From a virus, in IMG/VR virus record IMGVR_UViG_3300018080_000002, positions 93,358-157,357 of that record: DNA of 64,000 nt. One strand, given 5' to 3'. A program made the position numbers and the translations under genes. This document shows, one piece after another, positions 3,285 through 50,705 of the stretch. Positions within the stretch are counted from its first letter, which is position 1, and every line of letters begins with the position of its first letter. The notes under the pieces are model-generated. The model had not been told where the DNA came from. It made no database searches and was given only the letters and a program-made list of their open reading frames with translations.

Positions 3285-3298
3285 CGAAAGCGATTTCG
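3285..3298 (+). repeat. Dispersed 14-bp motif CGAAAGCGATTTCG, copy 1 (intergenic, followed by T run)
   Basis: Exact copy; CGAAA/TTTCG stem with GCGA loop. Confidence 0.85.
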
Positions 3299-3315
3299 TT
3301 TTTTAAGGAGTATGT

Positions 3316-4293
3316 ATGCGTAAGGTAGTCGTCACAGGGGGATGTGGCTTTATTGGAAGTGCGTTTGTTCGTTTATTTCATGAGAAATACGATATTCTGA
3401 TTGTTGATAAATTCACATATGCGGCAGATCCTATTAGGATAGAGGGGTGTAAGCATAGCATTTGGAAAGAGGATATTGCTAAGGAAAATTGGCATGATGA
3501 ACTGGTGAGATGGAAACCGGATGTTATTGTGAATTTCGCGGCTGAGTCTCATGTTGATAGATCGATTCATTCGGACCAGGTTTTTCTTGATGCGAATACT
3601 GGAGGGACTTTAAATCTTTTAAGGTACTGTAACGTCATGGGATGTAGGATGGTTCAGGTATCTACAGACGAGGTGTATGGATCTATACGAGAGGGTGCTT
3701 TTTTTGAGCATGATAGATTTAACCCTCGTAATCCATACAGTGCCTCTAAAGCGGCTGCGGAGCATTTCTGCAACGCTTATTATGCGACACATAAGATTGA
3801 TGTCGTTGGCACCAGAGGAGCTAATACCTACGGTCCTTGGCAGTATGCTGAAAAACTTATACCTGTAGCTTTAAAGAAATTGTATGATGGAGGTAAAGTC
3901 CCGGTATATGGCATAGGTGCTCAGATCAGAGATTGGTTGTATGTGGATGATCACGCCAAAGCCATTGAGCATGTTATGCTGCATGGTAAGGCTGGAGAGT
4001 TTTATAATGTTCCTGGCACCAAAGAATTGCAGAATATTGATTTAGTCAAATCTTTGATACAGACTTGTAAAGCTAGAGGTTGGGACATAGACGTTGATAA
4101 TAGCATTGAATTTGTGGCTGATAGAAAGGGTCACGATTTTAGATACAGCATGAATGGTGGAAAAATACACAGTATAGGCTTTTTTAAAACAACGATGTTT
4201 GAGGATGGATTGAACGCTACTGTGGATCACTATAAGAGGGTGTTTGATAAACAAAAATGTTTAAGAGGGGTAAGTAATGGGAACAATACCTAG
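3316..4293 (+). CDS. rfbB: dTDP-glucose 4,6-dehydratase
   Basis: TGGCGFIG, DKFTYA, FAAESHVDRSI, VSTDEVYG, YSASK, EKLIP, RDWLYVDDH, DRKGHDFRY. Confidence 0.93.
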   Translation: MRKVVVTGGCGFIGSAFVRLFHEKYDILIVDKFTYAADPIRIEGCKHSIWKEDIAKENWHDELVRWKPDVIVNFAAESHVDRSIHSDQVFLDANTGGTLNLLRYCNVMGCRMVQVSTDEVYGSIREGAFFEHDRFNPRNPYSASKAAAEHFCNAYYATHKIDVVGTRGANTYGPWQYAEKLIPVALKKLYDGGKVPVYGIGAQIRDWLYVDDHAKAIEHVMLHGKAGEFYNVPGTKELQNIDLVKSLIQTCKARGWDIDVDNSIEFVADRKGHDFRYSMNGGKIHSIGFFKTTMFEDGLNATVDHYKRVFDKQKCLRGVSNGNNT

Positions 4294-4825
4294 CACAGAA
4301 ATTTGTGGCCGAGCCATCGCAGACGGAATGTTAGTTCCGATCTCATATGATGATGGTGCTAAACAGGAATATGGTTTTATCGGCAATGTGAGAAAAGGTG
4401 GTCCGACAGATTTTTTCTGGAGAGTAACCAAGGCTGAATTAGTAGATTGGAAAATCTCGAAAGATGATTTGATGGATTGCGTTCGTCAATTATCTGAGAT
4501 GGGCAATATAGAGCAGTTGAGAGACATGCTTGGTATTAGCCCAGGTCAGGGTTTAAAGTATTGCGATTTTGGTCTTAGGAGCGAAACCAATCCTAAGATT
4601 TGTTGTCGAGTGGTTGTCAATTCGAGGACAGCATACGGTCATCCGTACTGGGATGCTGATGGTGGTGCTCCAAGCAATTTCAACGATTATGGTCAGGTAA
4701 TAGAGATTTATTTCTATTATGATATTCATAATGTCGTATCTGGGGAAGAAACGGATGATCGATTGGTTGGCGATATGAATAAGCTACTATTTGGAGATGG
4801 TGTAACTGTTCCTACTTTACTTTAA
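4277..4825 (+). CDS. Hypothetical protein
   Basis: 182-aa ORF, GAGGGG RBS, overlaps rfbB end. Confidence 0.5.
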   Translation: MGTIPSTEICGRAIADGMLVPISYDDGAKQEYGFIGNVRKGGPTDFFWRVTKAELVDWKISKDDLMDCVRQLSEMGNIEQLRDMLGISPGQGLKYCDFGLRSETNPKICCRVVVNSRTAYGHPYWDADGGAPSNFNDYGQVIEIYFYYDIHNVVSGEETDDRLVGDMNKLLFGDGVTVPTLL

Positions 4826-4836
4826 GGAAAGAGAAT

Positions 4837-5049
4837 ATGAGGCAGTTCAAAAAAAGACCGATCAAGGATTTTATGGCTGTTGACATTAAAGAGGACATAG
4901 CCTCTAGCGCGACAGTGCCGGGTTTTACGATTGAGGGTGAATGGAATGGTATCAATAATTTCATGTCAGATCTTAAATATCACTTAACGATTTTGAGTCA
5001 GAAACATGGTGTTAAGGTGGTATCATCTGGGGAACCTGAAGATGGGTAG
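4837..5049 (+). CDS. Small hypothetical protein
   Basis: IKEDIASSATVPGF resembles ISEQTTTANVPGF of 28784. Confidence 0.45.
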   Translation: MRQFKKRPIKDFMAVDIKEDIASSATVPGFTIEGEWNGINNFMSDLKYHLTILSQKHGVKVVSSGEPEDG

Positions 5050-5544: not shown

Positions 5545-6087
5545 ATGCCGCTTAAAAAATCATGCAGTATAAAGGCGTATAAAGACAATGTCGCAGAGTT
5601 AATTGGCTCTGGACGCAAACCTAACCAAGCCGTTGCAATCGCCATCAGGACGCTAAAAACGGCTTGTGGGGTGGAATCTGATAAGAGGATGAGTCCCAAG
5701 CAGATTGTTGGAGAATCGCTAAGATTGCCGAGATTACGCGAAATGGCATCCAGTTTAAAAAGCTTTGGAAAATTAGGCTTTTACAACGGATACGATAATT
5801 TTGGCGATGTTTTGGATAAATTCGAGGATTTACGGATAGAGTTACGACCAACCAAAAATGATTTTAAGGTGATTGAGGATTTTAAAAAGCAGAACGAAAG
5901 CGATGGCGATAAGGATCATCGTGATTATTGGTCTGGTATCGCTAGGCAATGTAATTACGTTACTGATTGTTTGAGATTGTATGGTTTAGCTTTGGAAAAT
6001 CAGGTTCCAGGTTTGGATGATATTTTTCAGAAAAGAGCGATTCAGTTGGCTAATAGAGATCGATGGATAAACATAGAGGAGCTATGA
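5545..6087 (+). CDS. Hypothetical virion-associated protein
   Basis: N-terminal MPLKK...NVAELI.SG...QAVAIA module seen in small phage head-region proteins; GGAGGG RBS. Confidence 0.5.
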   Translation: MPLKKSCSIKAYKDNVAELIGSGRKPNQAVAIAIRTLKTACGVESDKRMSPKQIVGESLRLPRLREMASSLKSFGKLGFYNGYDNFGDVLDKFEDLRIELRPTKNDFKVIEDFKKQNESDGDKDHRDYWSGIARQCNYVTDCLRLYGLALENQVPGLDDIFQKRAIQLANRDRWINIEEL

Positions 6088-7267: not shown

Positions 7268-7543
7268 GTGATGCGTAATCAATATTTGAAAGAGGTATCG
7301 GATATTGTCAATTTCATGATGGGTAAATCGGACGATATCTCTGAGGAGATTGGAGATCCTATCAATGACGATGATGATGCTGAAAAAAGGCTACAGGTTG
7401 CTTTGAAGGACATCAAAGATGTTTTGAAGAAAATACCTCATTTAAAAGATCGCAAATACATCGCTCGTATATTGGGTCAGGTTCAAGTTGATATGGATGA
7501 TTTGATGAATTATTTTTCTAAAAAGAAAAGATTCAAGGGTTGA
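7268..7543 (+). CDS. Putative internal head protein, leader family B
   Basis: MRNQYLKEVSDIVNFMMG...ISEE. Confidence 0.5.
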   Translation: MMRNQYLKEVSDIVNFMMGKSDDISEEIGDPINDDDDAEKRLQVALKDIKDVLKKIPHLKDRKYIARILGQVQVDMDDLMNYFSKKKRFKG

Positions 7544-8730
7544 TGAAAGACAAAGCCTCAACAGGAGTTCCTATTATGGTAGAGGAAGCATTGGGAGACA
7601 TTGTTGAGAGAGTAAAATCGAAAAGCGAAGCTCGTAGGCTGTCTATACAGACGGGAAAGGAGATTGATATGGATGGTTTTGACTTACCGGATATGGATGT
7701 GACTGTATCTGACGATAAGACCAGAATCATTGAGGACGAAAAGAAATCTGCTATTAGAATGGCCTTTCTTGGTCTGGGTCAAGGCGGTGGTAACATAGCG
7801 GATACATTCTGGAAGTATGGATATAGGCGTGTGTTAATAGTGAACACGACTGATCAAGACTTCAAAGACATAGAATGCACGAATCGCTTGGTTATCGGAG
7901 ATGATGTCAGGGGTGCTGGCAAAGATCCAGCAGTAGGTGCGAAGGTGTTTGAGGACCACAAAGAGGATGTTCTTACAGCTATAAAGAATGCCTTTGGTAA
8001 GGACGTGGAGCAAGTAATGATCTGTGTTGGTGCTGGAGGAGGGACCGGAGGAGGTTCTGCTTCAGGTGCAGCCAAAGCGATCAAGGAATTTCTGAAAAAC
8101 AATGGATCTGAAGATGCAAAAATAGGTTTCATTGTGAGTATGCCAGCCAAGCCGGAGGGTAGTGTAGTTGTCAATAACGCGGAGACGTTATTGGGTATGT
8201 TGCGTGAGTCTGTAAAGTTGAAAGAAATAAGTCCATTGGTGGTAGCTGATAATGCGAAAATTCTTAAAATTTTTCCGAATACGAAACTTGGTCAACGTTG
8301 GGATGTTATCAATCGGAGTGTTTGTGGGCTTTTTGATAGCTTTAATGTGCTTGCTGCACAGAGTTCCAGTTATGCGACCTTTGATCCACAGGATTACAAA
8401 AAGGTTCTTAACAGTGGGATGTTGATATTTGGCAGGAGTGTATTAGGGGTTCCTGAGACTGGAACAGAGTTGAGCGATGCTATCAGAAAGAATCTTAAAG
8501 GTGGTTTTTTGAGCGAGAGATTTGCTTTAACAGCAGCCACTCATGCGGCATCCATTATTGTTGCGAACAAAGACACCTTGGACCAGTTGGACCAGGAGGC
8601 TTATGATATGTCGTTTGAAACGCTACAGAGAGTCATAGGTTCAAAGAAACTGGTAATGTATCAGGGAATTTTCGATAACGAGAAAGTTAAGGGGATACAT
8701 TATTTTACGGTAGCGGGTGGTTTAGGATAA
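7540..8730 (+). CDS. Tubulin/FtsZ-family GTPase (PhuZ/TubZ-like)
   Basis: GLGQGGGNIA (T1 loop), GAGKDP, GAGGGTGGG (T4 signature), DN, FDPQDY (T7-loop equivalent). Confidence 0.88.
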   Translation: MMKDKASTGVPIMVEEALGDIVERVKSKSEARRLSIQTGKEIDMDGFDLPDMDVTVSDDKTRIIEDEKKSAIRMAFLGLGQGGGNIADTFWKYGYRRVLIVNTTDQDFKDIECTNRLVIGDDVRGAGKDPAVGAKVFEDHKEDVLTAIKNAFGKDVEQVMICVGAGGGTGGGSASGAAKAIKEFLKNNGSEDAKIGFIVSMPAKPEGSVVVNNAETLLGMLRESVKLKEISPLVVADNAKILKIFPNTKLGQRWDVINRSVCGLFDSFNVLAAQSSSYATFDPQDYKKVLNSGMLIFGRSVLGVPETGTELSDAIRKNLKGGFLSERFALTAATHAASIIVANKDTLDQLDQEAYDMSFETLQRVIGSKKLVMYQGIFDNEKVKGIHYFTVAGGLG

Positions 8731-8744
8731 ACAAAGGAGAAAAT

Positions 8745-9611
8745 ATGTTTAAAATAGCTCATGTTTCAGAGGAATTAGCTCCAGGTGAATTTGAGAATGA
8801 GATCAAAGAAATCGCATATGCCTTAGATACATATGTTCCGAAACCGAAGCTTGGTCAGCCATTCAAAATGAAGATTGAATCAGGATTTTATGATTTGCAA
8901 TGTTCCCTGAATGAGCATTCTGTCAAAAAGCTTAAACCGATGGAGATCATTTCTGACGAGATGATGGAAACATCGTGGAATAGGGTGCTTAGATCGGAGG
9001 TTCATAAGTTTTATACGAGCAGGGACAGGCTGGAGTCGAAGGGATTGCTGCATAAAACGGGTTTATTGCTATACGGACCTCCAGGATCGGGCAAAAGCTC
9101 TCTGCTTAAGATGGAGATGAAAAGGTTAGCTCAAGATGGAAAGGTCATATTTATGGCTCGTAGCCCATATATGATCAAAGAGTCGTTGGCCAATTTCAGG
9201 AAAATGGAGCCAAACAGAGATGTAGTGGTTATCCTGGAAGATATGGATGAGTACGTTAAATATGGTCTGCATGAGATGTTGGAGACAATGGACGGTATGA
9301 ACACCGTTGATCATGTCATGTTTGTCGCTACGACGAATAACATGGAGGGGATGCCTAACAAGATCTTAAGGACTGGAAGGATCGATAAAAAGATAGAGAT
9401 ACCGATGCCTCATGTAAGAGAGAGGCGAAAGTATCTTGAGATGAAAACCAACTGGAGGCCATCATTGATTGAAAATGTGGCGGTTAGGACTGAAGGATTT
9501 GGGTACTCGGATCTCAGGACATTATGTCATTTCGTGGATGGTTATGGAATGAAGATAAGAGATTCATATAGAGAAATACGGAACGATATACGTTCTCGTA
9601 ATAAGAAATAA
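8745..9611 (+). CDS. AAA+ ATPase, classic clade
   Basis: Walker A GPPGSGKS, Walker B VILEDMDE, ATTN sensor, SRH LRTGRID. Confidence 0.9.
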   Translation: MFKIAHVSEELAPGEFENEIKEIAYALDTYVPKPKLGQPFKMKIESGFYDLQCSLNEHSVKKLKPMEIISDEMMETSWNRVLRSEVHKFYTSRDRLESKGLLHKTGLLLYGPPGSGKSSLLKMEMKRLAQDGKVIFMARSPYMIKESLANFRKMEPNRDVVVILEDMDEYVKYGLHEMLETMDGMNTVDHVMFVATTNNMEGMPNKILRTGRIDKKIEIPMPHVRERRKYLEMKTNWRPSLIENVAVRTEGFGYSDLRTLCHFVDGYGMKIRDSYREIRNDIRSRNKK

Positions 9612-14160: not shown

Positions 14161-14419
14161 TTTAAGGTTTACAAGATTGATATCTAGTCGCACAAATATG
14201 TGTGGCTATAAGAAATTGCCGCATAATTTAAAACAAGAGTTTGGAGAGGCTCATTTAATGTTTGAAAAAAGTGCTGCTAAGGAGGATTGGGATTCCGATG
14301 AGGAAACCACTTTAAGGGATTTACTACTAAGATTAGCGGAGGTTTTAGTCAGTCGTATAAACGTGAAAGAAAAGGAAAAGTCGTTAGTCAGTATAAAGGG
14401 TAATATTGAAAGGTTGTAA
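14144..14419 (+). CDS. Hypothetical protein
   Basis: 91-aa ORF coupled to both neighbours. Confidence 0.45.
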   Translation: MSQYNDLRFTRLISSRTNMCGYKKLPHNLKQEFGEAHLMFEKSAAKEDWDSDEETTLRDLLLRLAEVLVSRINVKEKEKSLVSIKGNIERL

Positions 14420-15753
14420 TGTTAAATCTTGGTAATATTGTAAAGTCCGTACAAAAAGTTTCTAAGGAAATAGAGGAATATCGTAATAGTAGGGTGTTAA
14501 TTTATAACGAAGATTGTTTGTCTCGTTTAAAAAAAGTCGAAAGCGATTTCGTTGATTCATTGGTTGCAGATCCACCCGCTGGCATCTCGTTCATGAACAA
14601 AGATTGGGATAAAGATAAAGGCGGTAGGGATGAATGGATATCTTGGATGACTGAAGTAATGAAAGAATGCCACAGAGTAATGAAACCAGGAGCACATGGT
14701 TTAGTGTGGGCTATTCCCAGAACATCCCATTGGACTGCTACAGCATTAGAAGAGGCTGGTTTTGAAGTCAAAGATGTTGTGACGCATCTTTTTGGGTCAG
14801 GATTTCCTAAAAGTTTAAATATAAGCAAAGCTATCGATAAGCTGAAAGGGGTTGATAGGGAAGTTGTTGGTAGTGTTCCACACACAACTGGCATTCATAG
14901 AAATCATTCTTTACAGAGGAGTGAGTGGGATGAAAAAGATACTAAACAAGGCACTTTGAAAAATGATGAGATGAAAATAACCAAACCAGCCACACCCGAA
15001 GCTGAACAATGGGATGGCTGGGGTAGTGCGCTAAAACCGAGCAATGAACATTGGATTTTAATAAGAAAACCATTATCTGAAAAGTCGATAGCGGAAAATG
15101 TTTTAAAACATGGGGCGGGGGGTATTAACATTGACGGGTCTAGGATTGGTACAAGTGGAAGTGCATTACACGCATCAAAACCAAGATCAAAGAGGACTGG
15201 ATTTATAAAGGGATTTGTATCGGGCACCGAAACAGAGATAAGAAATCAAGGCCGATTTCCATCGAACACGGTCATGACACATCATCCTGAATGCGAACTA
15301 ACGGTGTATCCGGATCATACTACAACATGGGAATGCCATGATGATTGCCCGGTGAAGATGTTGGATGATCAATCTGGAATATTGAAAAACGGTGGTGCTG
15401 TAGCAGGTAAAGGGTATGAAAAAAATGGGATGTTTTCTATGGGAAATATAAATAATGCAAAGATTGATTTTGCTGGTGATAAAGGTGGTGCATCCCGATT
15501 CTTTTATTGTGCTAAAGCATCACGTTCGGATAGGGGTGAAGGAAACAATCACCCTACGGTTAAAAACACAAAATTGATGGAATATTTAGTAACACTCGTA
15601 ACTCCAAAGAACGGTCGGGTATTAGATCCTTTTATGGGTAGTGGTAGTACAGGTGTGGCGTGTGCTAGACTTGGGTATAGATTTTTCGGAATAGAAAAAG
15701 AAAAAGAATATTTTGATATTGCAGACACAAGGATAAAGAACGTCCTGGATTAG
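14419..15753 (+). CDS. DNA N6-adenine/N4-cytosine methyltransferase (beta class)
   Basis: Motif IV DPPA, GSGFPKS, HPTVK..LM.YL, motif I VLDPFMGSGSTG, GIEKE.EY. Confidence 0.9.
   Translation: MLNLGNIVKSVQKVSKEIEEYRNSRVLIYNEDCLSRLKKVESDFVDSLVADPPAGISFMNKDWDKDKGGRDEWISWMTEVMKECHRVMKPGAHGLVWAIPRTSHWTATALEEAGFEVKDVVTHLFGSGFPKSLNISKAIDKLKGVDREVVGSVPHTTGIHRNHSLQRSEWDEKDTKQGTLKNDEMKITKPATPEAEQWDGWGSALKPSNEHWILIRKPLSEKSIAENVLKHGAGGINIDGSRIGTSGSALHASKPRSKRTGFIKGFVSGTETEIRNQGRFPSNTVMTHHPECELTVYPDHTTTWECHDDCPVKMLDDQSGILKNGGAVAGKGYEKNGMFSMGNINNAKIDFAGDKGGASRFFYCAKASRSDRGEGNNHPTVKNTKLMEYLVTLVTPKNGRVLDPFMGSGSTGVACARLGYRFFGIEKEKEYFDIADTRIKNVLD
14538..14551 (+). repeat. Dispersed 14-bp motif CGAAAGCGATTTCG, copy 2 (in MTase)
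   Basis: Exact copy. Confidence 0.85.
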
Positions 15754-17469: not shown

Positions 17470-17500
17470 AAGTCGCCATCGATTTCGTTCGGGGGATATC

Positions 17501-23009: not shown

Positions 23010-23558
23010 ATGGCTAGAGATCAGATTACTGACTTTCTGTTGTCTAATCGGTTTCATTTACTGGATGTATCTTTGACGATACCTCCAGTATTGATTCCTA
23101 TATGGGGTTTTACGAGTATCAGTGCTCCAGAGATGACTGTTTCTTATCGAGAGATAAAAGAGGGTAACTACGAGTTTCCCCGAAAGGTTGTCGAGCGAGC
23201 GTCTGTATCTGTTCTAACCCTAGAGAACGGAAGTCAGATCTTCAATTCCGGTTTTTGGGACTGGATTAGTAAGATGCCGGAAGGTAATTACGAGAAAAAA
23301 GATTTATTGTTGATGCACCTGACTGGTATTAACCCGACAGATTCAGATAGTGTTGGGATAGATATTGGTGGTTTTGGTGTGGCTACAGGGGAATTTGCAT
23401 TTAGGGTTCCAGGTAAGGCATGGCTGTTAAAAAATTGTGCAGCGGCTAGGTACAAGGCGGGTTCAGACTTTAGTTCTATGGGTGGTTCAGAGGTTAGCAT
23501 CCAGCAATTAGATTTAGAGTATGAGGAGTTTCTTGAGTTTAACGTAGGTATTGGTTGA
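23010..23558 (+). CDS. Second tail tube-like protein
   Basis: GFTSISAPE...EIKEGN...LTLENG...FWDW...IQQLDLEYE; paralogue of 22516. Confidence 0.8.
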   Translation: MARDQITDFLLSNRFHLLDVSLTIPPVLIPIWGFTSISAPEMTVSYREIKEGNYEFPRKVVERASVSVLTLENGSQIFNSGFWDWISKMPEGNYEKKDLLLMHLTGINPTDSDSVGIDIGGFGVATGEFAFRVPGKAWLLKNCAAARYKAGSDFSSMGGSEVSIQQLDLEYEEFLEFNVGIG

Positions 23559-23566
23559 GGTGTATT

Positions 23567-24025
23567 ATGAGAAACGAAAGCGATTTCGCATCTAAGACAA
23601 AATCGATGGATAATGTTCTTACATTTGCGAAGGTGATGTCCAAGAGTTATAAACAATTGACCGAGGAAGAGTTTGATACGGTCGATGAGCAGTTAGAAAA
23701 AGTCAAGATAGCATTCGAGTCGGAGCTGTCTTTATTCATATTTGAGCTATTAAAAGATTATTCGCATAAGTTCAATTGGAGCTTTGCGTCTCCGAATAGC
23801 GAGTTATTTGGTCAAAGCTGGCAGTCTCTACAGGATAGATATCAGCTCATGGGTGATGCTGATAAAATCGATCTGTATAAAAAGATCGGCATGTATATGA
23901 TCAAAGTATTTTTAGAGTTGTTTCCGAATGCAGGAGAGCAGGCAGCGGTAGAGATGGCTATGGTCTTTAAGGATCTTATGGTCGAAAGGCTGAGGGAAAA
24001 ATCTGTTCAAGCAAGGAAAGTATAA
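23567..24025 (+). CDS. Hypothetical protein
   Basis: ATG after GAGGTG; LTEEE site at about aa 31. Confidence 0.5.
   Translation: MRNESDFASKTKSMDNVLTFAKVMSKSYKQLTEEEFDTVDEQLEKVKIAFESELSLFIFELLKDYSHKFNWSFASPNSELFGQSWQSLQDRYQLMGDADKIDLYKKIGMYMIKVFLELFPNAGEQAAVEMAMVFKDLMVERLREKSVQARKV
23575..23588 (+). repeat. Dispersed 14-bp motif CGAAAGCGATTTCG, copy 3
   Basis: Exact copy, just inside the start of 23567. Confidence 0.85.
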
Positions 24026-24294
24026 TGAATCTTAAAAAACTAAATCGAACCCTCGAAGATATTGAGATGATTTTGAATGAGAATGCGTATATGACTAAGG
24101 TTCATGATGAATATGTAAAATTAAATAAGAAGATTCATGAGCATCTTATTAGGCAAGGCAAATTAGACCGTCAGTTGGACAAGATCAAGAAATTAGCAAA
24201 AAAATATGGGATATTTGAGTTATACATAAATGGTCAGACAATACAGATTCAAGAGATAAAAATAGAGGATATTTTTAAGAATATGGGGCATTAG
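24025..24294 (+). CDS. Leader family A protein
   Basis: MNLKKLNRTLEDIEMILNE. Confidence 0.65.
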   Translation: MNLKKLNRTLEDIEMILNENAYMTKVHDEYVKLNKKIHEHLIRQGKLDRQLDKIKKLAKKYGIFELYINGQTIQIQEIKIEDIFKNMGH

Positions 24295-24298
24295 TGAT

Positions 24299-24562
24299 AT
24301 GAATCTCAAAAAGCTTAATGAACAGATGGAAGAGAGCATTTCGATATTAGAGGATAAGACCGAGGAGATGAAAAAAAAGTTGGCTGTTAGGTACGGCAAA
24401 CTTCAGATGAAGGTCAATAGACTTACTGATATGGAATGGAAATGTGGCGAGGAATTGGAAAAGATAAAGAAAATAGCTGAAAGATATAAGATAAGTGAGA
24501 TTGAAGTTGATGGAGGGACTATTGATTTATCTGATGTTTATCTAGGTGATATGAAAGCTTAA
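24299..24562 (+). CDS. Leader family A protein
   Basis: MNLKKLNEQMEESISILED. Confidence 0.65.
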   Translation: MNLKKLNEQMEESISILEDKTEEMKKKLAVRYGKLQMKVNRLTDMEWKCGEELEKIKKIAERYKISEIEVDGGTIDLSDVYLGDMKA

Positions 24563-24572
24563 GGTGGTAACA

Positions 24573-25304
24573 ATGGATCTCAAAAAACTAAATCGAACCC
24601 TCGAAGAGAGCATTCGGATTTTAGAGGAAGATAAGGTTCATACCATAATGTTAGAGGCTAAGTCTAAGGTGAATGAGTCGATTATACCGAATATCCAGAA
24701 ATGGGTTGATGCTGAACCAAGAAATACCATTGGTGATATCTCGTTTGAGATGGTCGAGGGTCATATTATTATCCCTAAAGATATCGTTACTCAGGAAGTG
24801 GTTGATCGGTATACGTATGAAGATAAGTGGGAAGTTGGTGAAGAGATCAGAGAATGGTTTTGGATGAGCTATGAGGAAAAGGGTAGTAAAGATATCCCTA
24901 AAGGTCACTGGGTTGCTTTAATGTTTGATGCTAGTATTATGGGAAAACCAGCGAAAGATATCAAGACTGCTTTGAATAATTTTATCAAAGAGGAGCGGGA
25001 TTGGTTCAAGAGTATAGGTGTTAAAGTAAAAACAAAGGTTAAGCTCACAAAAGCAACTGGTTCAGAGGCAGAACATACAAATGATAGTATTGGTTGGGAA
25101 TATTTATACACGGAATTTGATTTGACTGATAGTCATATGAGCCTTTTAGGCAAGATAAAAGATTCTGACGAGTCTTATAAGCCGGATAGCTATGATACGA
25201 AGTATTATATCCCCAAGATGGAAAAAAATGGCTTAGTGGTTTCTCAAGGTGGTGGTTATGTGATTACACCGAAAGGCGAAAAACTTTTGGCTAAGGGTTG
25301 GTAA
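24573..25304 (+). CDS. Leader family A protein with C-terminal winged-helix-like module
   Basis: MDLKKLNRTLEESIRILEE; C-term KMEKNGLV...YVITPKGEKLL. Confidence 0.65.
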   Translation: MDLKKLNRTLEESIRILEEDKVHTIMLEAKSKVNESIIPNIQKWVDAEPRNTIGDISFEMVEGHIIIPKDIVTQEVVDRYTYEDKWEVGEEIREWFWMSYEEKGSKDIPKGHWVALMFDASIMGKPAKDIKTALNNFIKEERDWFKSIGVKVKTKVKLTKATGSEAEHTNDSIGWEYLYTEFDLTDSHMSLLGKIKDSDESYKPDSYDTKYYIPKMEKNGLVVSQGGGYVITPKGEKLLAKGW

Positions 25305-25690
25305 TGGATCTCAAAAAACTCAACAAAGTTCTCAGAGAAAGTATTTCTATTTTACGAACAGAGTCCGATAAGTTTCGAGATCTTCCGATATATGGTGATG
25401 CGATTCCAGCGGGAAGCACCTTAATTAAAAAGAAAAGGGCTAAAAAGGATGCCATTTTTAAGCCTGTATTAATTAAGCAAGATGCTTATAGGACAAATAA
25501 AACCATATGGGTAAGAGCTATGGGTGTGTATGAAGGCGGGAAGGTTGTCAGGAGTTTTGAATATACCAGGAGTGGTAGAGTACAACTGTCGCTATGGTTA
25601 AAATACACAGACGACCCTGTGGTTGAAGATAAAATAACAAAATACAGGAAAGGGACTATTAACGATTTGCCAGCATTGATTGTTCGATGA
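25304..25690 (+). CDS. Leader family A protein
   Basis: MDLKKLNKVLRESISILRTE; TAATG coupling. Confidence 0.65.
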   Translation: MDLKKLNKVLRESISILRTESDKFRDLPIYGDAIPAGSTLIKKKRAKKDAIFKPVLIKQDAYRTNKTIWVRAMGVYEGGKVVRSFEYTRSGRVQLSLWLKYTDDPVVEDKITKYRKGTINDLPALIVR

Positions 25691-25703
25691 CATGGGGGTA
25701 ACG

Positions 25704-26048
25704 ATGAATCTTAAAAAATTAAACCAAGCTCTAGGCGAGAGTATTAAGATATTGGAAGGAAAATCGGATAAATATTTAGCTATTAAACGTGGTTCAGGTA
25801 CAAATAGATACTATTTAACTACTGCAAAAAAATATCGTGGTCGTTGGATGATTGGTGGTGATGTTGATACAACTAATGTAACTATTCTCAAAAAGGATCA
25901 AACGGACGATCGATGGAAAGCTTATACCCTTAAAGGTAATCGTATGGTTTTTTCTGATTATGTGGATGAGGATGATTTAAGGAAATATGAGAAAGGTCTG
26001 GATGATAAAGATTTGGAAGATGTTGGTTTGAAGGACTTGTATAAGTGA
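25704..26048 (+). CDS. Leader family A protein
   Basis: MNLKKLNQALGESIKILEG. Confidence 0.65.
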   Translation: MNLKKLNQALGESIKILEGKSDKYLAIKRGSGTNRYYLTTAKKYRGRWMIGGDVDTTNVTILKKDQTDDRWKAYTLKGNRMVFSDYVDEDDLRKYEKGLDDKDLEDVGLKDLYK

Positions 26049-26054
26049 AAAAAT

Positions 26055-26327: not shown

Positions 26328-26336
26328 AGGTATGTT

Positions 26337-27263: not shown

Positions 27264-27272
27264 AGGTGAAGT

Positions 27273-27746: not shown

Positions 27747-27758
27747 GGTGATTGTCGT

Positions 27759-28412: not shown

Positions 28413-28422
28413 GAGAATAACG

Positions 28423-28791
28423 ATGGATCTACGTAGTCTGAATAAAAAGCTGGAGGAATCTATTTCTCTTTTAAATGAGGGAAAGACTGCTGATGGAACA
28501 GTCACCATTGAAGGATGGTATGACAAGGACGATAACGAGTGGAATCTGGAGATTGAATATACGGTTGCTGACTATGAGTATGGTGCTGATAGAGATAGCA
28601 GGCGGGGTATGAGGCGAGTAGACCTTGAGGATTGGAGCGTTTCTCATGCTGAGTTAGTTTATCCGACCAAAAAAGATCTGGAGCCTGGGGAAAAATTGCC
28701 TAAATTCAATGAAAGAAAGCTCTCTCGCAAAGAATTGAAGGATCTCGGAGATCAGATTGAGGATTTGGCTAGGGAAGATTATCATGGATAA
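28423..28791 (+). CDS. Leader family A protein
   Basis: MDLRSLNKKLEESISLLNE. Confidence 0.65.
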   Translation: MDLRSLNKKLEESISLLNEGKTADGTVTIEGWYDKDDNEWNLEIEYTVADYEYGADRDSRRGMRRVDLEDWSVSHAELVYPTKKDLEPGEKLPKFNERKLSRKELKDLGDQIEDLAREDYHG

Positions 28792-29053: not shown

Positions 29054-29284
29054 ATGGGTAAACCGATTGTAGGCAAAGTTCGTTTGAATTTGTTTATGCA
29101 GGCAAAGTTGTATATCGAATTGTGTCATATCGCGGAGACTGATGATCGAAGCATGGCTGACGTTATCAGGGAAGCGTGTAGAGATTACGTGGTTCGATAC
29201 AAAAGACGTGGAACGCATAAGTATTTTAATCAAGGAGTAAGCGATGAGCGAAGTGACGAAAGAGGTAGGGACAACGACAGTTGA
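29054..29284 (+). CDS. Ribbon-helix-helix (CopG/Arc-like) DNA-binding protein
   Basis: VRLNLFM...LY.EL..IA....RSMADVIREA...Y. Confidence 0.7.
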   Translation: MGKPIVGKVRLNLFMQAKLYIELCHIAETDDRSMADVIREACRDYVVRYKRRGTHKYFNQGVSDERSDERGRDNDS

Positions 29285-37236: not shown

Positions 37237-38313
37237 ATGTCAGATGTATGGGGTGAAATGGTAGCAGCCGTAAGAAAGTTCGGCTTTGAGAGTGTTTTCC
37301 GCAAATATTATTCTAAATATCGCGCACTTGTCGTTGATGTGGCTGACGAAGAGGATCGATGTCGTGTTTTGGTAAAAGTCCCAACGTTGTTTGCAGATAG
37401 TCCGTTGGCTAATTGGGCTGAACCGATGGTACATGGCGGCAAGATGGATCTGCTCGGTAGTATTACCGGGAAACCGTCTACGACTGGCGGGAAATTCTGC
37501 GGTTCATTTTTTCCTCCGAAAGTTGGTGATTGGATATGGGTAGAATTTAAGAACGGAGATTCAAGATATCCTCTCTATCATTGTGAGTCGTGGTATGGGG
37601 ATGATGAGCGACCAGATGCCTTTGGGGAAGCGTCAGACTGGAATATGATGAATCCTATCTTTATATCGAGATACGGTCATCAGATGTATTTCGATGAGAG
37701 TGCTGGTGCAGCCAAGTTCATGCTGAAGATGAACAACGGCAACATGATCACTATAGATGAGACTACTGGCGATGAAAAAATAGAGATTCAATCAGAGAGG
37801 GGGGCGTATTGGAGATGGACGCTTAATCCTGATTTACAGAATACTGATATTAAGCTTGTGTTGGGGGGAGAATACGAAGAGACTATCAGCCAAGCCGTAG
37901 CCATAGAGCATGAGGATGACGTTGAGTATACGATAGGTGGAACATATGACCTCACGGTATCAGACGCGGTCGCTTTTGAGTTTGAGGATGATTTTGGTCT
38001 AACTATTGGTGGAGATTATGACGTTGAAGTTTCTGGCGACTATTCTATGACGTCAAAAGGTGATACGACAATAGAAGCCAGTGGTGAGGCAACGCTAAAA
38101 GGTAAAACTCAAACGATCGGGAGCGGGGGACATCCCGTAGCTCACGGAGATGTGTTAAAGGATGCTTTGGATGCGTTGGCTGATGAGCTGACTAAGTTGA
38201 CGCCAGGTAGCCCAGCTAATAACGCTTCAGCGATTGCGGCTCTCATAGCGGCTGGAACGGCGTTTAAGTCAGCGATAGCCAAAATGAATAGCGAAAAGAC
38301 AGAGACGGACTGA
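37237..38313 (+). CDS. Baseplate central spike (gp5/gpV/VgrG-like OB fold + beta-helix)
   Basis: YRALVVD..D....RV.V.VP, WAEP, FFPPKVGD.IWVEF.NGD..YP, GH...FDE, beta-repeats. Confidence 0.9.
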   Translation: MSDVWGEMVAAVRKFGFESVFRKYYSKYRALVVDVADEEDRCRVLVKVPTLFADSPLANWAEPMVHGGKMDLLGSITGKPSTTGGKFCGSFFPPKVGDWIWVEFKNGDSRYPLYHCESWYGDDERPDAFGEASDWNMMNPIFISRYGHQMYFDESAGAAKFMLKMNNGNMITIDETTGDEKIEIQSERGAYWRWTLNPDLQNTDIKLVLGGEYEETISQAVAIEHEDDVEYTIGGTYDLTVSDAVAFEFEDDFGLTIGGDYDVEVSGDYSMTSKGDTTIEASGEATLKGKTQTIGSGGHPVAHGDVLKDALDALADELTKLTPGSPANNASAIAALIAAGTAFKSAIAKMNSEKTETD

Positions 38314-39002
38314 TGGGTGCAAAGGATAAATTCATAGATGCGATTATCAAACTGAACTCCGAAGGTCTCGAAGGTGATGCGAAGGATAATGCTGAGAAAG
38401 ATGCGGAGGCAGAGGCGAAAGCGATTTCGTCGGCTATGCTATTGATGAAAATTCCTCCAGGCGCAATTTGCTCAGAGATGACGATTAGTGGTGCTCCTGG
38501 AGGCGTAAAAAACACGTCTTTGATAAAGTTGGTGGATGCAACTCAAGCAGCTCAAGTACTTAAGTCTGCTTTAGTCGGAATCAATTCTGGAGGTCCACCA
38601 TCGGGTGCATCAAAATTGGTTGGTTGGGCTGAGAAATATGCCGATGCAATTAAAGATTTATGCACAAGCGTTGGCATCCCGAAAGGTTCGATTATTGAGA
38701 ATCCTGCTCCAGCTACAATTACTGTTCCTAACCTACCGTTTCCAATTGCAGATTTAACTGGTGCTTTGGCAAAATTTCAGACAGACTACGTAAAAGTTAA
38801 AAAGGGTGATACGACAGATCCATCTGCGATTGCGAGTATATCGGGGTGGGCTAGTCAAGTTGCATCTGCTATAAGTGCTTTTATGATTACGTTAACCGTA
38901 CCGCCTGGTGTTGGCTTTCTTACGATTTCACAACCCGTACCGCCTGGACCTCCGATTGCAGGCATTCCGAACCCCGTTCCATTGCCTTTGGCAGATTCAT
39001 AA
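38313..39002 (+). CDS. Putative spike-tip protein with three internal repeats
   Basis: A..(I/Y/V)..A(M/I).....(I/V)P.G x3; translationally coupled to spike. Confidence 0.5.
   Translation: MGAKDKFIDAIIKLNSEGLEGDAKDNAEKDAEAEAKAISSAMLLMKIPPGAICSEMTISGAPGGVKNTSLIKLVDATQAAQVLKSALVGINSGGPPSGASKLVGWAEKYADAIKDLCTSVGIPKGSIIENPAPATITVPNLPFPIADLTGALAKFQTDYVKVKKGDTTDPSAIASISGWASQVASAISAFMITLTVPPGVGFLTISQPVPPGPPIAGIPNPVPLPLADS
38416..38429 (+). repeat. Dispersed 14-bp motif CGAAAGCGATTTCG, copy 4
   Basis: Exact copy, read in a different frame (AKAIS) from copies 2, 3 and 5 (ESDF). Confidence 0.85.
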
Positions 39003-39453: not shown

Positions 39454-41781
39454 ATGGCTGTGACGAGTGCTGTAGATGCGTTAACCAGAGTAAGGTATGT
39501 AGGTCAGGATTTTCAGACGCACGTTAATGAGTCTACGGAATTTCTAAAGACCAAGTACCCTGATGAGTATAACGATTGGGTTGATAGCAATGCTGGTATA
39601 GCCCTGATTCAGTTAATTGGTTATACGGCGCAGGGTTTGTCTTTCTATATGAACAGACGAACCACTGATATTTACATGAACACGGCTCAAACTCCTTCGG
39701 CGATTTCTAAAATTGCTAGGATGTTGAACTACACGATAGAGGCTGCTTCGTCTGCATCGGCTGATATTGTGGTCACTCTAAAAAATGGTCCATACACCTA
39801 TCCTATCACGATCAGAAAGGGCTTTAGATTCTCCGGTCCTAATGGGTTGATTTTTGAATATAGAAACAATGAGCCTATTGTTTACAGTCCTGGAGAGACC
39901 GAAAAAACCTTTACGGTTTATGAGGGTGAGACTAAAGAGAACACCTTTGTTTCTGATGGCACAGAGAATCAGAAATTTTCTCTGGTTGGTGTCCCTGAAG
40001 AAAATTATTTGATCGGAGCTTCCACAGAGGTATATGTTCAGAACCAATTGTGGAGTGAAAGAAACCAGATCCCTTATGCGATTGGTGATTTTTATGAAAT
40101 AGATTATGTCAGTGAGCCTCCTACGATCAAATTTGGGGATGGTATTGCTGGATCGATACCCGACTCTGGATCAGAGATTCGGGTTATTTTTATTGTCGGC
40201 AGCGGTCGTCAGGGACGGATTGGTAGCGGTCTGATATCTACGTCATTAGATGCGTTAGTGGTTCGCAATGAGACTGTTGAGCTTGAGGTTAATAACCCTA
40301 GCCCGTCCAGCGGTGGTGATGATTACGAAGATCTTAGAAAGGTCAAATCACTTGCTCCTGAGTTTTTTCAATCACAAGATAGGGCTATCTCTAAACGAGA
40401 TTACGATGCGATTGCTAATACTTATCCAGGTGTCGCTAAGTCTAATGCGTACATAGTCAGGGGTATTGACGACGATTACACTATCAATTTTTATCTTGAT
40501 AGAATCGTAGCGACAGTAAATGAGGGTGTCAGTGGTATCATTGACGATTCTCAGGCTTATCTTGATATTATTGAGAGTAATGCGAGTGCCATCAATGAAG
40601 CTGTTGATGACATGGAGACAGATATTTTAGCCGTAGTCAATCCAATCATTACGAATATTAAGACTGAATATTCGACAATGGCGACTGAGGTGTCTGGCGT
40701 TGTAGATCAAATGATTAGCGACATCTCGACTTATTGGACTGGCGTTGAGAGTGATTTGTCGGATATCGAGACAGCGACAGATGCGGCAATTACTACTCAG
40801 GAAAAAGAGGTCACTTTACCTCAATCGACAATTATTTCTTTGGTGCAGCAAATAAACGACACGGTGTCTGGTTGTGGATCTGGAGTTACCACTCAGGTTG
40901 CATCTCTTGGAAATGAGATAAACAGCGAAGTGGCGGGGATACGCACAGGGGTAAGGACTGGAGCGGAAACTCTTGATACTGCTGTGAATGCGTTAACAGC
41001 TTCGATAAGGTCTAGGATTGGAGATATCCAGACCGAAATAGATGATCTTAATAGCGAGATTGATACTGTTATTACCGCTAGAGGGACTAATATTGATACG
41101 TATCTCGATAGTATCCCGACAACGATTTCGGCTTTTGTGCTGGATTTTCAAAACTCAGTAAGTGGTAATGTCGAGAATATCAATGATGCTGTTAGCGGTA
41201 TTGACCAAGTATATAAGAGTCATTCTACGGACATTATTGAGAGTGTTGAATCTGATGTTGATGACTTAAAAACGTATCTTGGAGAGACATTATCGACCTC
41301 ATGCTCATCTAATACCGTTGAGGTTCAGGTTTTACAGGTTGACGCGAACAATACTTATGTGGCTCCTACATCTGGTTTGCTGGAATCGTTAAGGAGTCAT
41401 TTGCAGGAAAGAGCCGATGCGGTGCATGTTGTTAAAACGATAGATGGTTCGATTGCGATTGTTCAGGTTGATTTAGAGGTGAGAATTAAAGTGGCTGACG
41501 ATGCTATTCAGGCTGATGTCAGGGATAGGGCTGAGCAGTCTTTGGTTAAGTATGACGATCAACCGTATGGTCTTTTAGTGTTGCGAGATTATGGAGATAG
41601 CCTCTATAAATACGAGATTCAGAAAGCTGTTAGGGATATTCAGTTGAGAGATACCGATGTGGAGTATGCTAATATTGATATTACTTACCCGACATCGAAA
41701 TTGGATTCTGCTGGCAATTTAATTATTGCATCAAATGAAGTAATTGTTCCGAGGACAATAACTGTTGCGGCTATTTTATAA
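39454..41781 (+). CDS. Baseplate wedge protein (T4 gp6 / gpJ-like) with large helical insertion
   Basis: DF......FLK..YP...ND...N.G, IA.MLNY, SDGT.NQ.F, I.FGDG..G.IP, GG.D.E, QDRA....DY. Confidence 0.88.
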   Translation: MAVTSAVDALTRVRYVGQDFQTHVNESTEFLKTKYPDEYNDWVDSNAGIALIQLIGYTAQGLSFYMNRRTTDIYMNTAQTPSAISKIARMLNYTIEAASSASADIVVTLKNGPYTYPITIRKGFRFSGPNGLIFEYRNNEPIVYSPGETEKTFTVYEGETKENTFVSDGTENQKFSLVGVPEENYLIGASTEVYVQNQLWSERNQIPYAIGDFYEIDYVSEPPTIKFGDGIAGSIPDSGSEIRVIFIVGSGRQGRIGSGLISTSLDALVVRNETVELEVNNPSPSSGGDDYEDLRKVKSLAPEFFQSQDRAISKRDYDAIANTYPGVAKSNAYIVRGIDDDYTINFYLDRIVATVNEGVSGIIDDSQAYLDIIESNASAINEAVDDMETDILAVVNPIITNIKTEYSTMATEVSGVVDQMISDISTYWTGVESDLSDIETATDAAITTQEKEVTLPQSTIISLVQQINDTVSGCGSGVTTQVASLGNEINSEVAGIRTGVRTGAETLDTAVNALTASIRSRIGDIQTEIDDLNSEIDTVITARGTNIDTYLDSIPTTISAFVLDFQNSVSGNVENINDAVSGIDQVYKSHSTDIIESVESDVDDLKTYLGETLSTSCSSNTVEVQVLQVDANNTYVAPTSGLLESLRSHLQERADAVHVVKTIDGSIAIVQVDLEVRIKVADDAIQADVRDRAEQSLVKYDDQPYGLLVLRDYGDSLYKYEIQKAVRDIQLRDTDVEYANIDITYPTSKLDSAGNLIIASNEVIVPRTITVAAIL

Positions 41782-48539: not shown

Positions 48540-48806
48540 ATGATGGCCGTATGTAAAAGTAAATCAAAAAAGAAATCGCCTAGCGTTGTTCAAGGGACCG
48601 GAGAGGTCACTCACCCTGAGAACAAGCCTGGTGAAATCCTATTTCGTAATACGAAAGATGAAATTGCCGTTATTTCCGATCTCGAAAATTTTACGATCGA
48701 ATTAGACAAAGAGGTTTTGAAATTTCACGAAGCAGTAACGATGATCTCGAAAAAGTATGACGTAAAAGTTAAGGATTTCATTAGTTTTGAAATAATTGAA
48801 GGGTGA
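48540..48806 (+). CDS. Hypothetical protein
   Basis: 88-aa ORF. Confidence 0.45.
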   Translation: MMAVCKSKSKKKSPSVVQGTGEVTHPENKPGEILFRNTKDEIAVISDLENFTIELDKEVLKFHEAVTMISKKYDVKVKDFISFEIIEG

Positions 48807-48814
48807 GGTGAAAG

Positions 48815-50293
48815 ATGGCAACTAGAACGTATATTACCTGGGAAGATGGCTATAAACGCCGTCCCTCCAACACTGATACGGTAGATTTTTCGAGCATTAG
48901 AATTGGTGCATCTCTTTTAGAAATTAAAGAAACTGCTGGTCATTTTGATTTTTCAGCAAAAAAATTAGTAAACGTGGCTCCAGGCGGGGTCAGTGGTGAG
49001 GCGGTTGAATACGGTCAGTACAATACTGCTTTAGGTTTGAAGGAAGATACGGCAAATAGAGGATCGGCAAATGGCTACTGTCCTCTTGATGCGAGTAGCA
49101 AGGTTCCTGCTGTAAACCTTCCAAACGCGATCATGGAGTACAAAGGTACATGGAACGCAACGACCAACACCCCGACACTTGCTGACGGTGGTGGAAATGC
49201 TGATGAAGCGATTGGTGATGTTTATCGTGTAAGTGTTTCGGGTACTCAGGACTTAGGTTCTGGATCTATTGATTTTGACGTTGGTGACTATGTAATTCTC
49301 AATGCCAGTAAGGTTTGGGAAAGGTCTCCTGGTGGTGATAATGTTGATTCTGTCAATGGTCAGAGCGGTGTTGTTGTTCTCGATACTGATGATATTGGTG
49401 AAGGTTCAACCAATAAGTATTACAGCGAGACGTTGTTTAATAGTAGCTTTAGCGGCAAGTCCACGGATGATCTAACTGAAGGATCAACGAATAAGTATTA
49501 TAGTGAGACTCTTTTTAATTCCAGTTTCAGTGGCAAGACGACTACTGATCTGACGGAAGGAGATAACAAATATTACACCGCAGCTCAGGCTAGGTCGGAT
49601 CTTATTACCCAGGTCATAACCGATGGTGTGACGGGTACTGCTCCGAGTGAAGATGCTGTTTATGACGCATTAGCTCTTAAGGCTGCTGCTGATCATAACC
49701 ATGATGGTGTTTATTCTCCTGTAGGTCATGACCATAGTGGTGTTTATGCTCCTATCAGTCATAACCATACGGCATCTGATGTCACCGATTTTAGTGCTGC
49801 TGCCAAGGCTGCGACTATTTCTCAGGTGATTACGGATGGTGTAACAGGTCTTGCACCAAGCGAAGATGCTGTTTTCGATGCGTTGGCTCTCAAAGCTGAT
49901 TTGACCGATGTATCGGCTCCAAAAACCACTTTGACCAACAAAGAGGGTGGTGAGATTACGATTCGTCAGGTTTGCTATTTGACTGCTGCTGGTGAGGTAA
50001 ACCTTGCTCAAGCGAATGACAGTTTGAGTCTAGCGACTGCGTTCTACATGGTTGAGGATGCTTCGATTGCAAATGATGCGTCTGGTGAGTTCTATATGCC
50101 TGATAGGGGTACTGAGGTTGATGGATTCTCAGGATTGACTGTAGGATCTCCTATTTATCTCAGTAGGTCATCTGCTGGTGGTTATCAGCAGGATCTTTCT
50201 GGCTTTGTTGCTGGAGAGCATGTTGTAACTCTTGGTAGGGTTGTATCTGCGACCAAGATTGTTTGGAATCCTAAATACGAGTTTGAGTGGTAG
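48815..50293 (+). CDS. Tail fibre protein
   Basis: YKGTWNATTNTP, VDSVNGQSG.V.L, T(D/T)D(I/L).EG..NKYY x3, APSEDAV.DALALKA x2, HxH motifs. Confidence 0.8.
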   Translation: MATRTYITWEDGYKRRPSNTDTVDFSSIRIGASLLEIKETAGHFDFSAKKLVNVAPGGVSGEAVEYGQYNTALGLKEDTANRGSANGYCPLDASSKVPAVNLPNAIMEYKGTWNATTNTPTLADGGGNADEAIGDVYRVSVSGTQDLGSGSIDFDVGDYVILNASKVWERSPGGDNVDSVNGQSGVVVLDTDDIGEGSTNKYYSETLFNSSFSGKSTDDLTEGSTNKYYSETLFNSSFSGKTTTDLTEGDNKYYTAAQARSDLITQVITDGVTGTAPSEDAVYDALALKAAADHNHDGVYSPVGHDHSGVYAPISHNHTASDVTDFSAAAKAATISQVITDGVTGLAPSEDAVFDALALKADLTDVSAPKTTLTNKEGGEITIRQVCYLTAAGEVNLAQANDSLSLATAFYMVEDASIANDASGEFYMPDRGTEVDGFSGLTVGSPIYLSRSSAGGYQQDLSGFVAGEHVVTLGRVVSATKIVWNPKYEFEW

Positions 50294-50347
50294 AAATATC
50301 TTTGTTTTCCGTAATTTACGTCTTGTCGTTTTCCGTACATAGTGTCC

Positions 50348-50373
50348 ACTGAGAGGGGTTATTCCCTCTCAGT
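50348..50373 (+). terminator. Intergenic stem-loop (terminator or RNA-stability hairpin)
   Basis: ACTGAGAGGGG-TTAT-TCCCTCTCAGT; no clear U-tract. Confidence 0.5.
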
Positions 50374-50405
50374 ATCCGTTGCACTAAGCATAGTGGGGAA
50401 TATAG

Positions 50406-50705
50406 ATGGGCAAGCATTTATCACTGATAAATACTGATTCGATAGCAAAGCAGAAACGAGTTGAATCTGCATACACCGATTATGTTTCAGTTGTTACGAA
50501 TGTTGATGGCGAAAGCGATTTCGTCATAGCTGGAGGTACGGTGACAGCCAACGGCAAAATCGATGTGTTAATAAACGGGGTTGTTTATTATGAGGGTGCC
50601 GACACTGAAGAGTGGCAAAGAGATACCGAAAATAATAAGATAGTGACAAACAGAGCGATACCTAAAAATGCCGAAGTAATTGTTCGGCTTTATGAATATG
50701 AGTGA
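50406..50705 (+). CDS. Small structural beta-domain protein
   Basis: GESDF...IDV.INGV...W.......I.....IP....V.VR, like domains in 46870 and 50714. Confidence 0.55.
   Translation: MGKHLSLINTDSIAKQKRVESAYTDYVSVVTNVDGESDFVIAGGTVTANGKIDVLINGVVYYEGADTEEWQRDTENNKIVTNRAIPKNAEVIVRLYEYE
50510..50523 (+). repeat. Dispersed 14-bp motif CGAAAGCGATTTCG, copy 5
   Basis: Exact copy; stem extendable ATGG/TCAT. Confidence 0.85.

Follow-up and report, generated by a model that had tools for sequence, protein, structure and literature searches.

A dispersed dyad-symmetric 14-mer in an uncultured T4-like phage and its lineage-specific counterparts in related genomes

The phage and the locus

The 64,000-nucleotide stretch of DNA analysed here (the window) comprises bases 93358-157357 of the 157,357-bp virus record IMGVR_UViG_3300018080_000002, the ends of which overlap by 123 bp, and carries exact copies of a 14-mer, CGAAAGCGATTTCG, both within and between genes. 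Here, we show that CGAAAGCGATTTCG is a genuine cis element under nucleotide-level selection, and we describe its variants in the same genome and its counterparts in related phages. The phage (G000; G001-G012 are labels of its IMG/VR relatives) is a distant, uncultured T4-like myovirus with a contractile tail. Its genome encodes a gp23-type capsid protein, a gp20 portal protein with an intein, a prohead protease and sheath, tube and baseplate genes, as well as UvsX/RecA, DnaB, a UvsW-like helicase and a RuvC-like protein for replication and recombination, 16 tRNAs and a TROVE protein. The real genes all lie on the plus strand, apart from a rare minus-strand operon, and the GC skew is ~+0.3 throughout.

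Among GenBank phages there is no close relative, the best capsid and sheath matches reaching at most 38% and 34% identity, respectively. Sheath relatives in the protein database (46-73% identity) lie on contigs of 152-162 kb, and the close ones (68-73%) come from Logan assemblies only. A search of IMG/VR with a single protein gave no match; the IMG/VR relatives, at 37-50% identity, were reached via sheath alignment, and ten of them were read, whole or in part. The clade to which the phage belongs looks like virulent T4-type phages.

The 14-mer is selected as DNA

A first-pass annotation, made from the letters of the window, had reported five exact plus-strand copies as far beyond chance. This was borne out, as 100 dinucleotide-preserving shuffles of the window produced no copy (Table 1). 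The genome as a whole has six exact copies, one of them at genome 92599 and 759 nt ahead of the window, plus a copy matching 13 of 14 positions at 48992, while the minus strand has none (0 expected), extending to the full genome the earlier remark that no reverse-complement copy was seen. The placement had also been described correctly, with one intergenic copy and four genic copies in two reading frames (E-S-D-F three times and K-A-I-S once); the seven main copies (the six exact ones and the 13/14 copy) comprise five in-frame E-S-D-F, one K-A-I-S and one intergenic copy. The copy at 23575 is possibly intergenic too, if the true start of its open reading frame (ORF) is the ATG ~30 nt downstream. 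When the copies were aligned with 60-nt flanks, conservation ended at the 14-mer, and the T at +1 in four of the five window copies, which had been pointed out before, is the only recurring flank base. The idea of a genome-wide element needs to be divided: the exact form is limited to genome 92.6-143.9 kb, and it is related forms in the same frame that occur elsewhere.

The coding copies reveal the level at which selection acts. ESDF peptides occur five times in the proteome, against 0.77 expected from composition, and all five are coded GAA-AGC-GAT-TTC, a codon combination with a probability of 0.009 each, so that 0.05 ESDF peptides with those codons are expected. The DNA word therefore imposes the peptide and not the reverse, and selection on CGAAAGCGATTTCG acts at the DNA level. 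This bears directly on the reading that the word has no function and recurs through a common peptide with codon bias, by chance, as a selfish short repeat or as an assembly artefact. Five copies do share the E-S-D-F frame, and a variant at genome 17456 coincides in part with a conserved exonuclease motif and may owe its presence to the protein sequence. However, the ESDF excess is due to the motif alone and always uses the same rare codons, copies are found in a second frame and outside coding DNA as well, the shuffles yielded none, the flanks show no homology and hence no sign of duplication or of a mobile element, and the same kind of element is found in ten related genomes. An assembly or adapter artefact, which the first-pass annotation had named as a refutation, is excluded because copies sit in frame within real genes, for example in a DNA methylase gene, just ahead of its DPPY region. 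We regard the absence of any function as highly improbable.

A family of half-site combinations

In the first 80 kb of the genome, where exact CGAAAGCGATTTCG is absent, CGCCAGCGATTTCG recurs three times on the plus strand and twice on the minus strand, and CGAAAGCGCATTCG three times on the plus strand. The core AGCGATTTCG is present 11 times on the plus and twice on the minus strand of the genome, compared with ~0.3 expected. Further, 40 instances of the frame CG-N4-CG-N4-CG were counted, where ~6 are expected and other equal spacings give 1-15, and more than half of the 40 are combinations of the half-sites CGAAAG, CGAAAT, CGCCAG, CGCCAT and CGAATG. Several of the combinations, including the over-represented CGCCAGCGATTTCG and CGAAAGCGATGGCG, cannot form a hairpin stem. 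Two variant copies near 17.3-17.5 kb lie within an ordinary DEDD exonuclease gene.

Table 1. Copies and variants of the 14-mer in the window, and the dyads of the related genomes (positions are those of the window; SD, Shine-Dalgarno)
Genome	Element	Position	Strand	Genome G+C	Sequence	Copies	Context
G000	exact copy	3285..3298	+		CGAAAGCGATTTCG		intergenic, 7 nt past the end of ORF 3006-3278; next come T6, AAGGAG and the start codon (ATG) of an epimerase/dehydratase gene (3316-4293)
G000	exact copy	14538..14551	+		CGAAAGCGATTTCG		in N6/N4 DNA methylase gene 14419-15753 (+119 nt), immediately ahead of the DPPY region; E-S-D-F
G000	exact copy	23575..23588	+		CGAAAGCGATTTCG		17 nt past the tail-tube stop (23010-23558), at the extreme 5' end of ORF 23555-24025; E-S-D-F
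G000	exact copy	38416..38429	+		CGAAAGCGATTTCG		in ORF 38313-39002 (+103 nt), other frame, K-A-I-S; flanks lengthen the pairing to 7 bp
G000	exact copy	50510..50523	+		CGAAAGCGATTTCG		in ORF 50406-50705 (+104 nt), E-S-D-F; flanks lengthen the dyad to 9 bp per arm
G000	family variant	5895..5908	+		CGAAAGCGATGGCG		half-sites CGAAAG + CGCCAT; identical word on the minus strand at genome 29116
G000	family variant	17474..17487	+		CGCCATCGATTTCG		half-sites CGCCAT + CGAAAT; intergenic
G000	weak variant	2137..2150	+		CGAAAGCGAATGCG		retains the CG-N4-CG-N4-CG frame; membership uncertain
G000	weak variant	41117..41130	+		CGACAACGATTTCG		membership uncertain
G001	dyad			38%	(AAAA)GTCTAAT-CA-ATTAGAC(TTTT)	~22
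G002	dyad				CTAAATCTTTAG
G003/G004	dyad				YGAAC-GCGC-GTTCG
G005	dyad			52%	(G)CGAAC-TYRA-GTTCG(C)	26
G006	dyad			59%	CGCAA-(GCAC/GCGC/TCGC)-TTGCG
G007, G010-G012	dyad			67%	GCGCAYGCGCRTGCGC
G008	dyad				CGACCACGTGGTCG
G009	dyad			71%	GGAGCCACATGRCTCC

Counterparts in the related phages

Exact CGAAAGCGATTTCG and its core are absent from all relatives read, and scanning viral contigs for the exact 14-mer gave single chance matches only. Each of the ten relatives has its own dispersed dyad, 12-16 bp long and of a different sequence (Table 1), with 8-26 copies per lineage. The frame CGAAN-N4-NTTCG is common to G000 and several relatives, several of the relatives' dyads are perfect palindromes, and asymmetric centres are found in both orientations (14:9 in G005 and 3:3 in G011). 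The G005 form CGAAC-N4-GTTCG may correspond to the frame of the Gram-positive SOS box. Dispersed dyads are, on this comparison, a trait of the whole uncultured T4-like clade.

When orthologs were used as anchors, the sites of G000 mapped nearer to those of G001, G005 and G006 than random positions did (P 0.02-0.08 per genome), and the UvsW-UvsX neighbourhood holds a site in all four genomes, which is suggestive of conservation at the level of neighbourhoods. Codon-exact conservation was not seen, the G005 ortholog of the G000 MerR-type gene having no site at the equivalent codon. Between G010 and G007, which are ~92% identical, the motif persists and 8 of 18 sites differ, and two of 19 G010 sites coincide with homology breakpoints, compared with four of 280 control positions. 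In the G007/G010-G012 subclade the motif is thus shared and kept while single sites turn over, and sites sometimes bound mosaic junctions.

Three side observations concern the relatives. Compared with G001, the window contains at 23555-28791 an insertion of ~5 kb of small genes between the post-tail-tube gene and an Arc-like ORF; in G001 these two genes are adjacent and a dyad lies at their junction. In G005, two dyads 40 bp apart sit in a 19-nt direct repeat (L222:18984-19037) within a 520-bp non-coding region; strong TTGACA promoters follow closely, and the location is probably a module boundary. The first 75 kb of G009 (L256-L259) hold a second motif, (C)ATGCGCTAG(A/G)TT, which is non-palindromic, confined to one strand, present in ~15 copies and distinct from the G009 dyad, and which looks like a lineage-specific promoter.

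Orientation, placement and spacing

The single orientation of the copies, which the first-pass annotation had pointed out, is no evidence of a strand-specific function because composition skew accounts for it: order-2 and order-3 Markov models favour the forward word ~4.3-fold over its reverse complement, and the probability that seven of seven copies are forward is ~0.23-0.24. Placement, in turn, is not random. In G000, 11 of 18 family sites are intergenic or at most 130 nt from an ORF start (28% expected, P = 0.004), and the enrichment of sites in non-coding DNA in G001, G005, G007 and G008 has P from 3e-3 to 6e-16. Non-coding sites in the relatives often span the stretch from a stop codon to just ahead of the next Shine-Dalgarno sequence or TTGACA box, and in G005 one site coincides with a -10/+1 position and several have a TTGACA box immediately 3' of them. 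Most copies in G000, G006 and G009 lie within ORFs.

None of this amounts to a local promoter signal. There is no consistent -10 or -35 element before or after the sites, and five sites located 103-119 nt from ORF starts have no common upstream signal. The T4 late promoter TATAAATA is not enriched in the genome (8 plus-strand and 6 minus-strand matches), so that this clade has late promoters unlike the T4 ones, and the intergenic DNA contains no other motif besides tRNA words and T runs. A terminator scan called none of the five window copies on the plus strand, only one of the five is followed by a T run, and three of them have folding scores of z > -1.4.

The 11 core sites are evenly spaced on the circular map (coefficient of variation (CV) of the gaps 0.35, P ~6e-4; largest gap 21.8 kb, P ~8e-4), as are the G001 dyads (CV 0.50, P ~5e-4). 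Even spacing is among the features that would be expected of duplex sites for a DNA-transaction enzyme, acting in T5-like nicking, in the start of recombination-dependent replication or in headful terminase docking, and scattered so widely that every part of the genome would have one nearby. The same explanation would accommodate copies within long ORFs that offer no intergenic space (two sites lie in one 2179-aa ORF of G005), the dispensability of single sites at a retained density, the breakpoints at G010 sites, and the presence of UvsX, the UvsW-like helicase and the RuvC-like gene in a phage of the T4 type, which rely on recombination-primed replication. However, gap CVs of 0.75-1.0 in G005-G008 show that even spacing is not general, no nickase or other dedicated enzyme is linked to the sites, the bias towards intergenic and 5' positions is not predicted, and nicks or ends are beyond what sequence can show. 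We therefore consider a DNA-transaction enzyme a rather unlikely explanation.

The layout of the non-coding sites also calls to mind the promoter early stem-loop (PeSL) cassettes of T4-like phages, ~100-bp composites that join a strong sigma-70 promoter to a stable, G/C-rich stem with demonstrated terminator activity and that are concentrated in hyperplastic early regions (PMC2839356, PMC4122927). The sites could be PeSL-type cassettes or their remnants, that is, lineage-specific stem-loop terminators serving as linkers for modular recombination. The phage is T4-like, PeSL stem-loops are lineage-specific and lie between a stop codon and the next promoter, Shine-Dalgarno sequence and ATG (PMC4122927, PMC2839356), several G005 sites show exactly that layout, and mosaic junctions are modestly over-represented at the sites. 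Against this, the window copies have neither a sigma-70 promoter nor a canonical terminator, conservation ends at the 14-mer and not after ~100 bp, the stems are weak, and four of the five window copies are inside ORFs or touch one, in a region of structural genes and not in a hyperplastic early region. A PeSL origin is, in our assessment, improbable.

A probable duplex docking site or a possible hairpin

We hold with moderate confidence that the CGAAAGCGATTTCG family is a duplex-DNA docking site of a candidate dimeric protein. The 14-mer would be the commonest form of a dyad-symmetric duplex site in which two half-sites of 5-6 bp, CGAAAG/CGAAAT with the alternatives CGCCAG/CGCCAT/CGAATG, are set ~9 bp apart, centre to centre, in the CG-N4-CG-N4-CG frame. 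Helix-turn-helix (HTH) dimers typically have sites of this 5-4-5 kind, in which one helical turn separates the half-sites. The site would most likely be read by a sequence-specific dimeric protein; since each lineage has a different site sequence, that protein is probably encoded by the phage itself. Recognition of the duplex by a dimer is favoured because terminators or RNA cleavage within ORFs would be harmful, the half-sites are modular and there is no strand bias. The earlier suggestion of a dimeric-protein site is thus the best-supported reading, without the two readers that had been named for it, the ribbon-helix-helix (RHH) protein at 29054 and a ParB-like ORF.

Several observations weigh against this reading. 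On the protein side, a six-frame search of the whole genome found no ParB_N domain (the control was detected in 11 of 14 genomes), which leaves ParB, and with it the proposed ParB-like ORF, unsupported as a reader. The genome contains no S24/LexA-like protein, so that LexA/S24 is likewise unsupported, and no tyrosine integrase was found in the five genomes searched, serine integrases and plasmid-prophage modes lying outside that search. The ORF at window 29054-29284 resembles Arc/RHH proteins only weakly and is widespread, and its DNA-reading beta-strand is identical in G005 and G007/G010, the dyads of which are wholly different. A MerR-type protein (48783-49301), the gene of which carries the 48992 copy, is detectable in only four of seven large genomes and its orthologs are not linked to sites, and an XRE-HTH protein has its own, different tandem palindromes in its upstream region. 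Sigma-70-like promoter matches near the window copies are at shuffle level and inconsistently placed, which leaves a regulatory output putative. Conservation of single sites is weak, the divergence in the G010/G007 comparison being 3.5% for sites and 5.7% for their flanks (P = 0.06).

The remaining points of this kind concern RNA, and together they make up the case for a sense-strand hairpin, formed in RNA or in transient single-stranded DNA (ssDNA) and acting as an attenuator, a processing or stabiliser site, a boxB-like landing pad or an ssDNA signal. All seven main copies are on the sense strand, and the GCGA centre fits a GNRA loop. The 13/14 copy keeps its pairing as U.G, and this variant, with T at position 1, recurs in four lineages (including G003, G005 and G006). 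G(-1)...T(+1) flank three of these seven copies. With flanks, the copy at 38416 folds with 7 bp (z = -2.3) and that at 50510 with 9 bp (RNA -10 kcal/mol, z = -3.8). The copy at 3285 and several variants stand between a stop codon and a Shine-Dalgarno sequence, several intergenic copies being followed by runs of T5-7, and sites in G001 and G005 come right after stops, 9-17 nt ahead of ATGs.

Nevertheless, the GNRA hairpin proposed by the first-pass annotation does not hold as a general property of the element. The bare stem has only -2.2 kcal/mol as RNA. Once 5-nt flanks are included, three of the five window copies are no more stable than their shuffled counterparts, in RNA and DNA folding alike (z -0.8 to -1.7). 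The over-represented CGCCAGCGATTTCG and CGAAAGCGATGGCG have no possible stem, the relatives show both orientations and non-GNRA dyad centres (TTGA/TCAA, GCAC, CA, CG), and the sense orientation in G000 is accounted for by composition. Among single-mismatch copies, those keeping pairing on the sense strand, on the antisense strand or on neither number 4/4/7 in G001 and 3/3/8 in G006, with no preference for sense-strand G.U wobble. Additionally, three genomes have most of their copies within ORFs. A sense-strand hairpin appears unlikely, albeit less so than the enzyme and cassette explanations above.

Other regulators and features of the genome

The idea of a centromere-like site for the tubulin rested on a real gene. 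Window 7540-9611 encodes a TubZ-like tubulin (Tubulin, TubZ-like_C) followed by an AAA ATPase, and the ortholog of the tubulin in G001 is 37% identical and has a G001 dyad just upstream. Known tubC centromeres are clustered iterons. The sites described here are single and dispersed and not clustered iterons beside the TubZ-like gene, TubR was not identified, and there is no link between the sites and the tubulin gene, so that membership in a TubZ-TubR-tubC system is not supported.

The sole leftward operon (genome 66,702-69,846; L215:6702-9846, minus strand), at which the GC skew collapses, encodes the 325-aa XRE-HTH protein (genome 68618-69595), which has a PAPS-reductase-like body (phrog_424). 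Upstream of it (L215:10030-10075) are the tandem palindromes CTAACGATCGTTAG and CTAACGAACGTTAG, likely the XRE protein's own operators, and the operon looks like an acquired regulatory or defence island. Further, the portal (gp20-type) gene and an 839-aa gene, both outside the window (L216:3984-6932; L213:17101-19620), each carry one intein with a LAGLIDADG homing endonuclease, and the phage encodes a 650-aa GH18 chitinase-family protein (genome 75,619-77,571; L215:15619-17571).

Relation to known dispersed sites

The closest published parallel is the 17-bp dyad TGTTCGG-N3-CCGAACA of Cluster O mycobacteriophages, of which Corndog has 34 copies (PMC4351075). It has no assigned function and is absent from other phages, and its authors propose a dimeric binding protein (PMC4351075). 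Both elements are short inverted repeats with invariant arms and a variable centre that are dispersed over the genome, with intergenic, 5'-proximal and internal-ORF copies mixed and an orientation without meaning, and sites lost by single changes between relatives, as well as indels bounded by sites, are known there and were seen here in the G007/G010-G012 subclade. The Cluster O phages differ in being Mycobacterium siphoviruses with ~70-kb genomes, and their 7-3-7 layout, as opposed to 5-4-5, comes at a density about five times higher. Moreover, one sequence is common to all five known Cluster O members, whereas here the sequence differs by lineage and the half-sites have alternative forms.

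The likeness to PeSLs lies in the T4-like phages, a lineage-specific consensus, the position of G001 and G005 sites between a stop and a promoter, Shine-Dalgarno sequence or ATG, and the implication of modular recombination; the present element differs in being a bare 14-mer that has a weak stem, lacks a promoter and is found for the most part within or beside ORFs of the structural region.

Stoperators (Cluster A, L5 gp71), the C1 operators of P1 and the CIR of phiC31 are also sets of many 13-17-bp sites in and between genes across a genome. In each set a single phage protein, the immunity repressor of a temperate phage, recognises the sites and influences transcription throughout the genome. 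The present case differs in that no tyrosine integrase or matching repressor was found, and in that stoperators and C1 operators lack symmetry. The earlier proposal of a stoperator-like site is therefore not upheld as such, although the sites may act in a stoperator-like way.

In cells, ParB-parS, Noc-NBS, RacA-ram, SlmA-SBS and MatP-matS pairs rely on palindromes of 13-16 bp, present in tens of copies, often in genes, and bound by dimers. In these chromosome-organising systems the collective distribution matters more than any single site. The phage differs from ParB and Noc in that G000 has no ParB_N protein, and as regards the RacA-like fold class, the MerR-type candidate of G000 does not track the dyad trait.

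Possible roles and significance

The output of binding is the most speculative part of the docking-site explanation. Our best guess is that the site would break up the long co-directional transcription units as a global operator, roadblock or insulator; a mark for the organisation or handling of the chromosome is the alternative. The site is not one of local promoter control. A bolder version, which we put forward tentatively and consider as doubtful as the hairpin, is a fast-evolving pair of a dimeric protein and a 12-16-bp dyad that is re-specified in each lineage and marks the chromosome every 5-12 kb independently of promoters. Such marking may serve compaction, the start of replication or recombination, or packaging, with the density of sites kept while single sites turn over. 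If true, this would be a phage counterpart of Noc/RacA/MatP-type marking, in phages without any such known system.

Dispersed dyad repeats have been described in a few phage groups and never explained. Here, the element runs through an uncultured T4-like clade of ten genomes that span 37-71% G+C and nine motif sequences. The clade-wide changes of the motif imply a reader that co-evolves with its site, and they offer a natural series of specificity swaps through which the reader and its role may be traced. Should the sites turn out to be ordinary global operators, the result would be a useful but modest annotation, whereas sites that organise or process the chromosome, and do not regulate promoters, would represent a new layer of T4-type phage biology.

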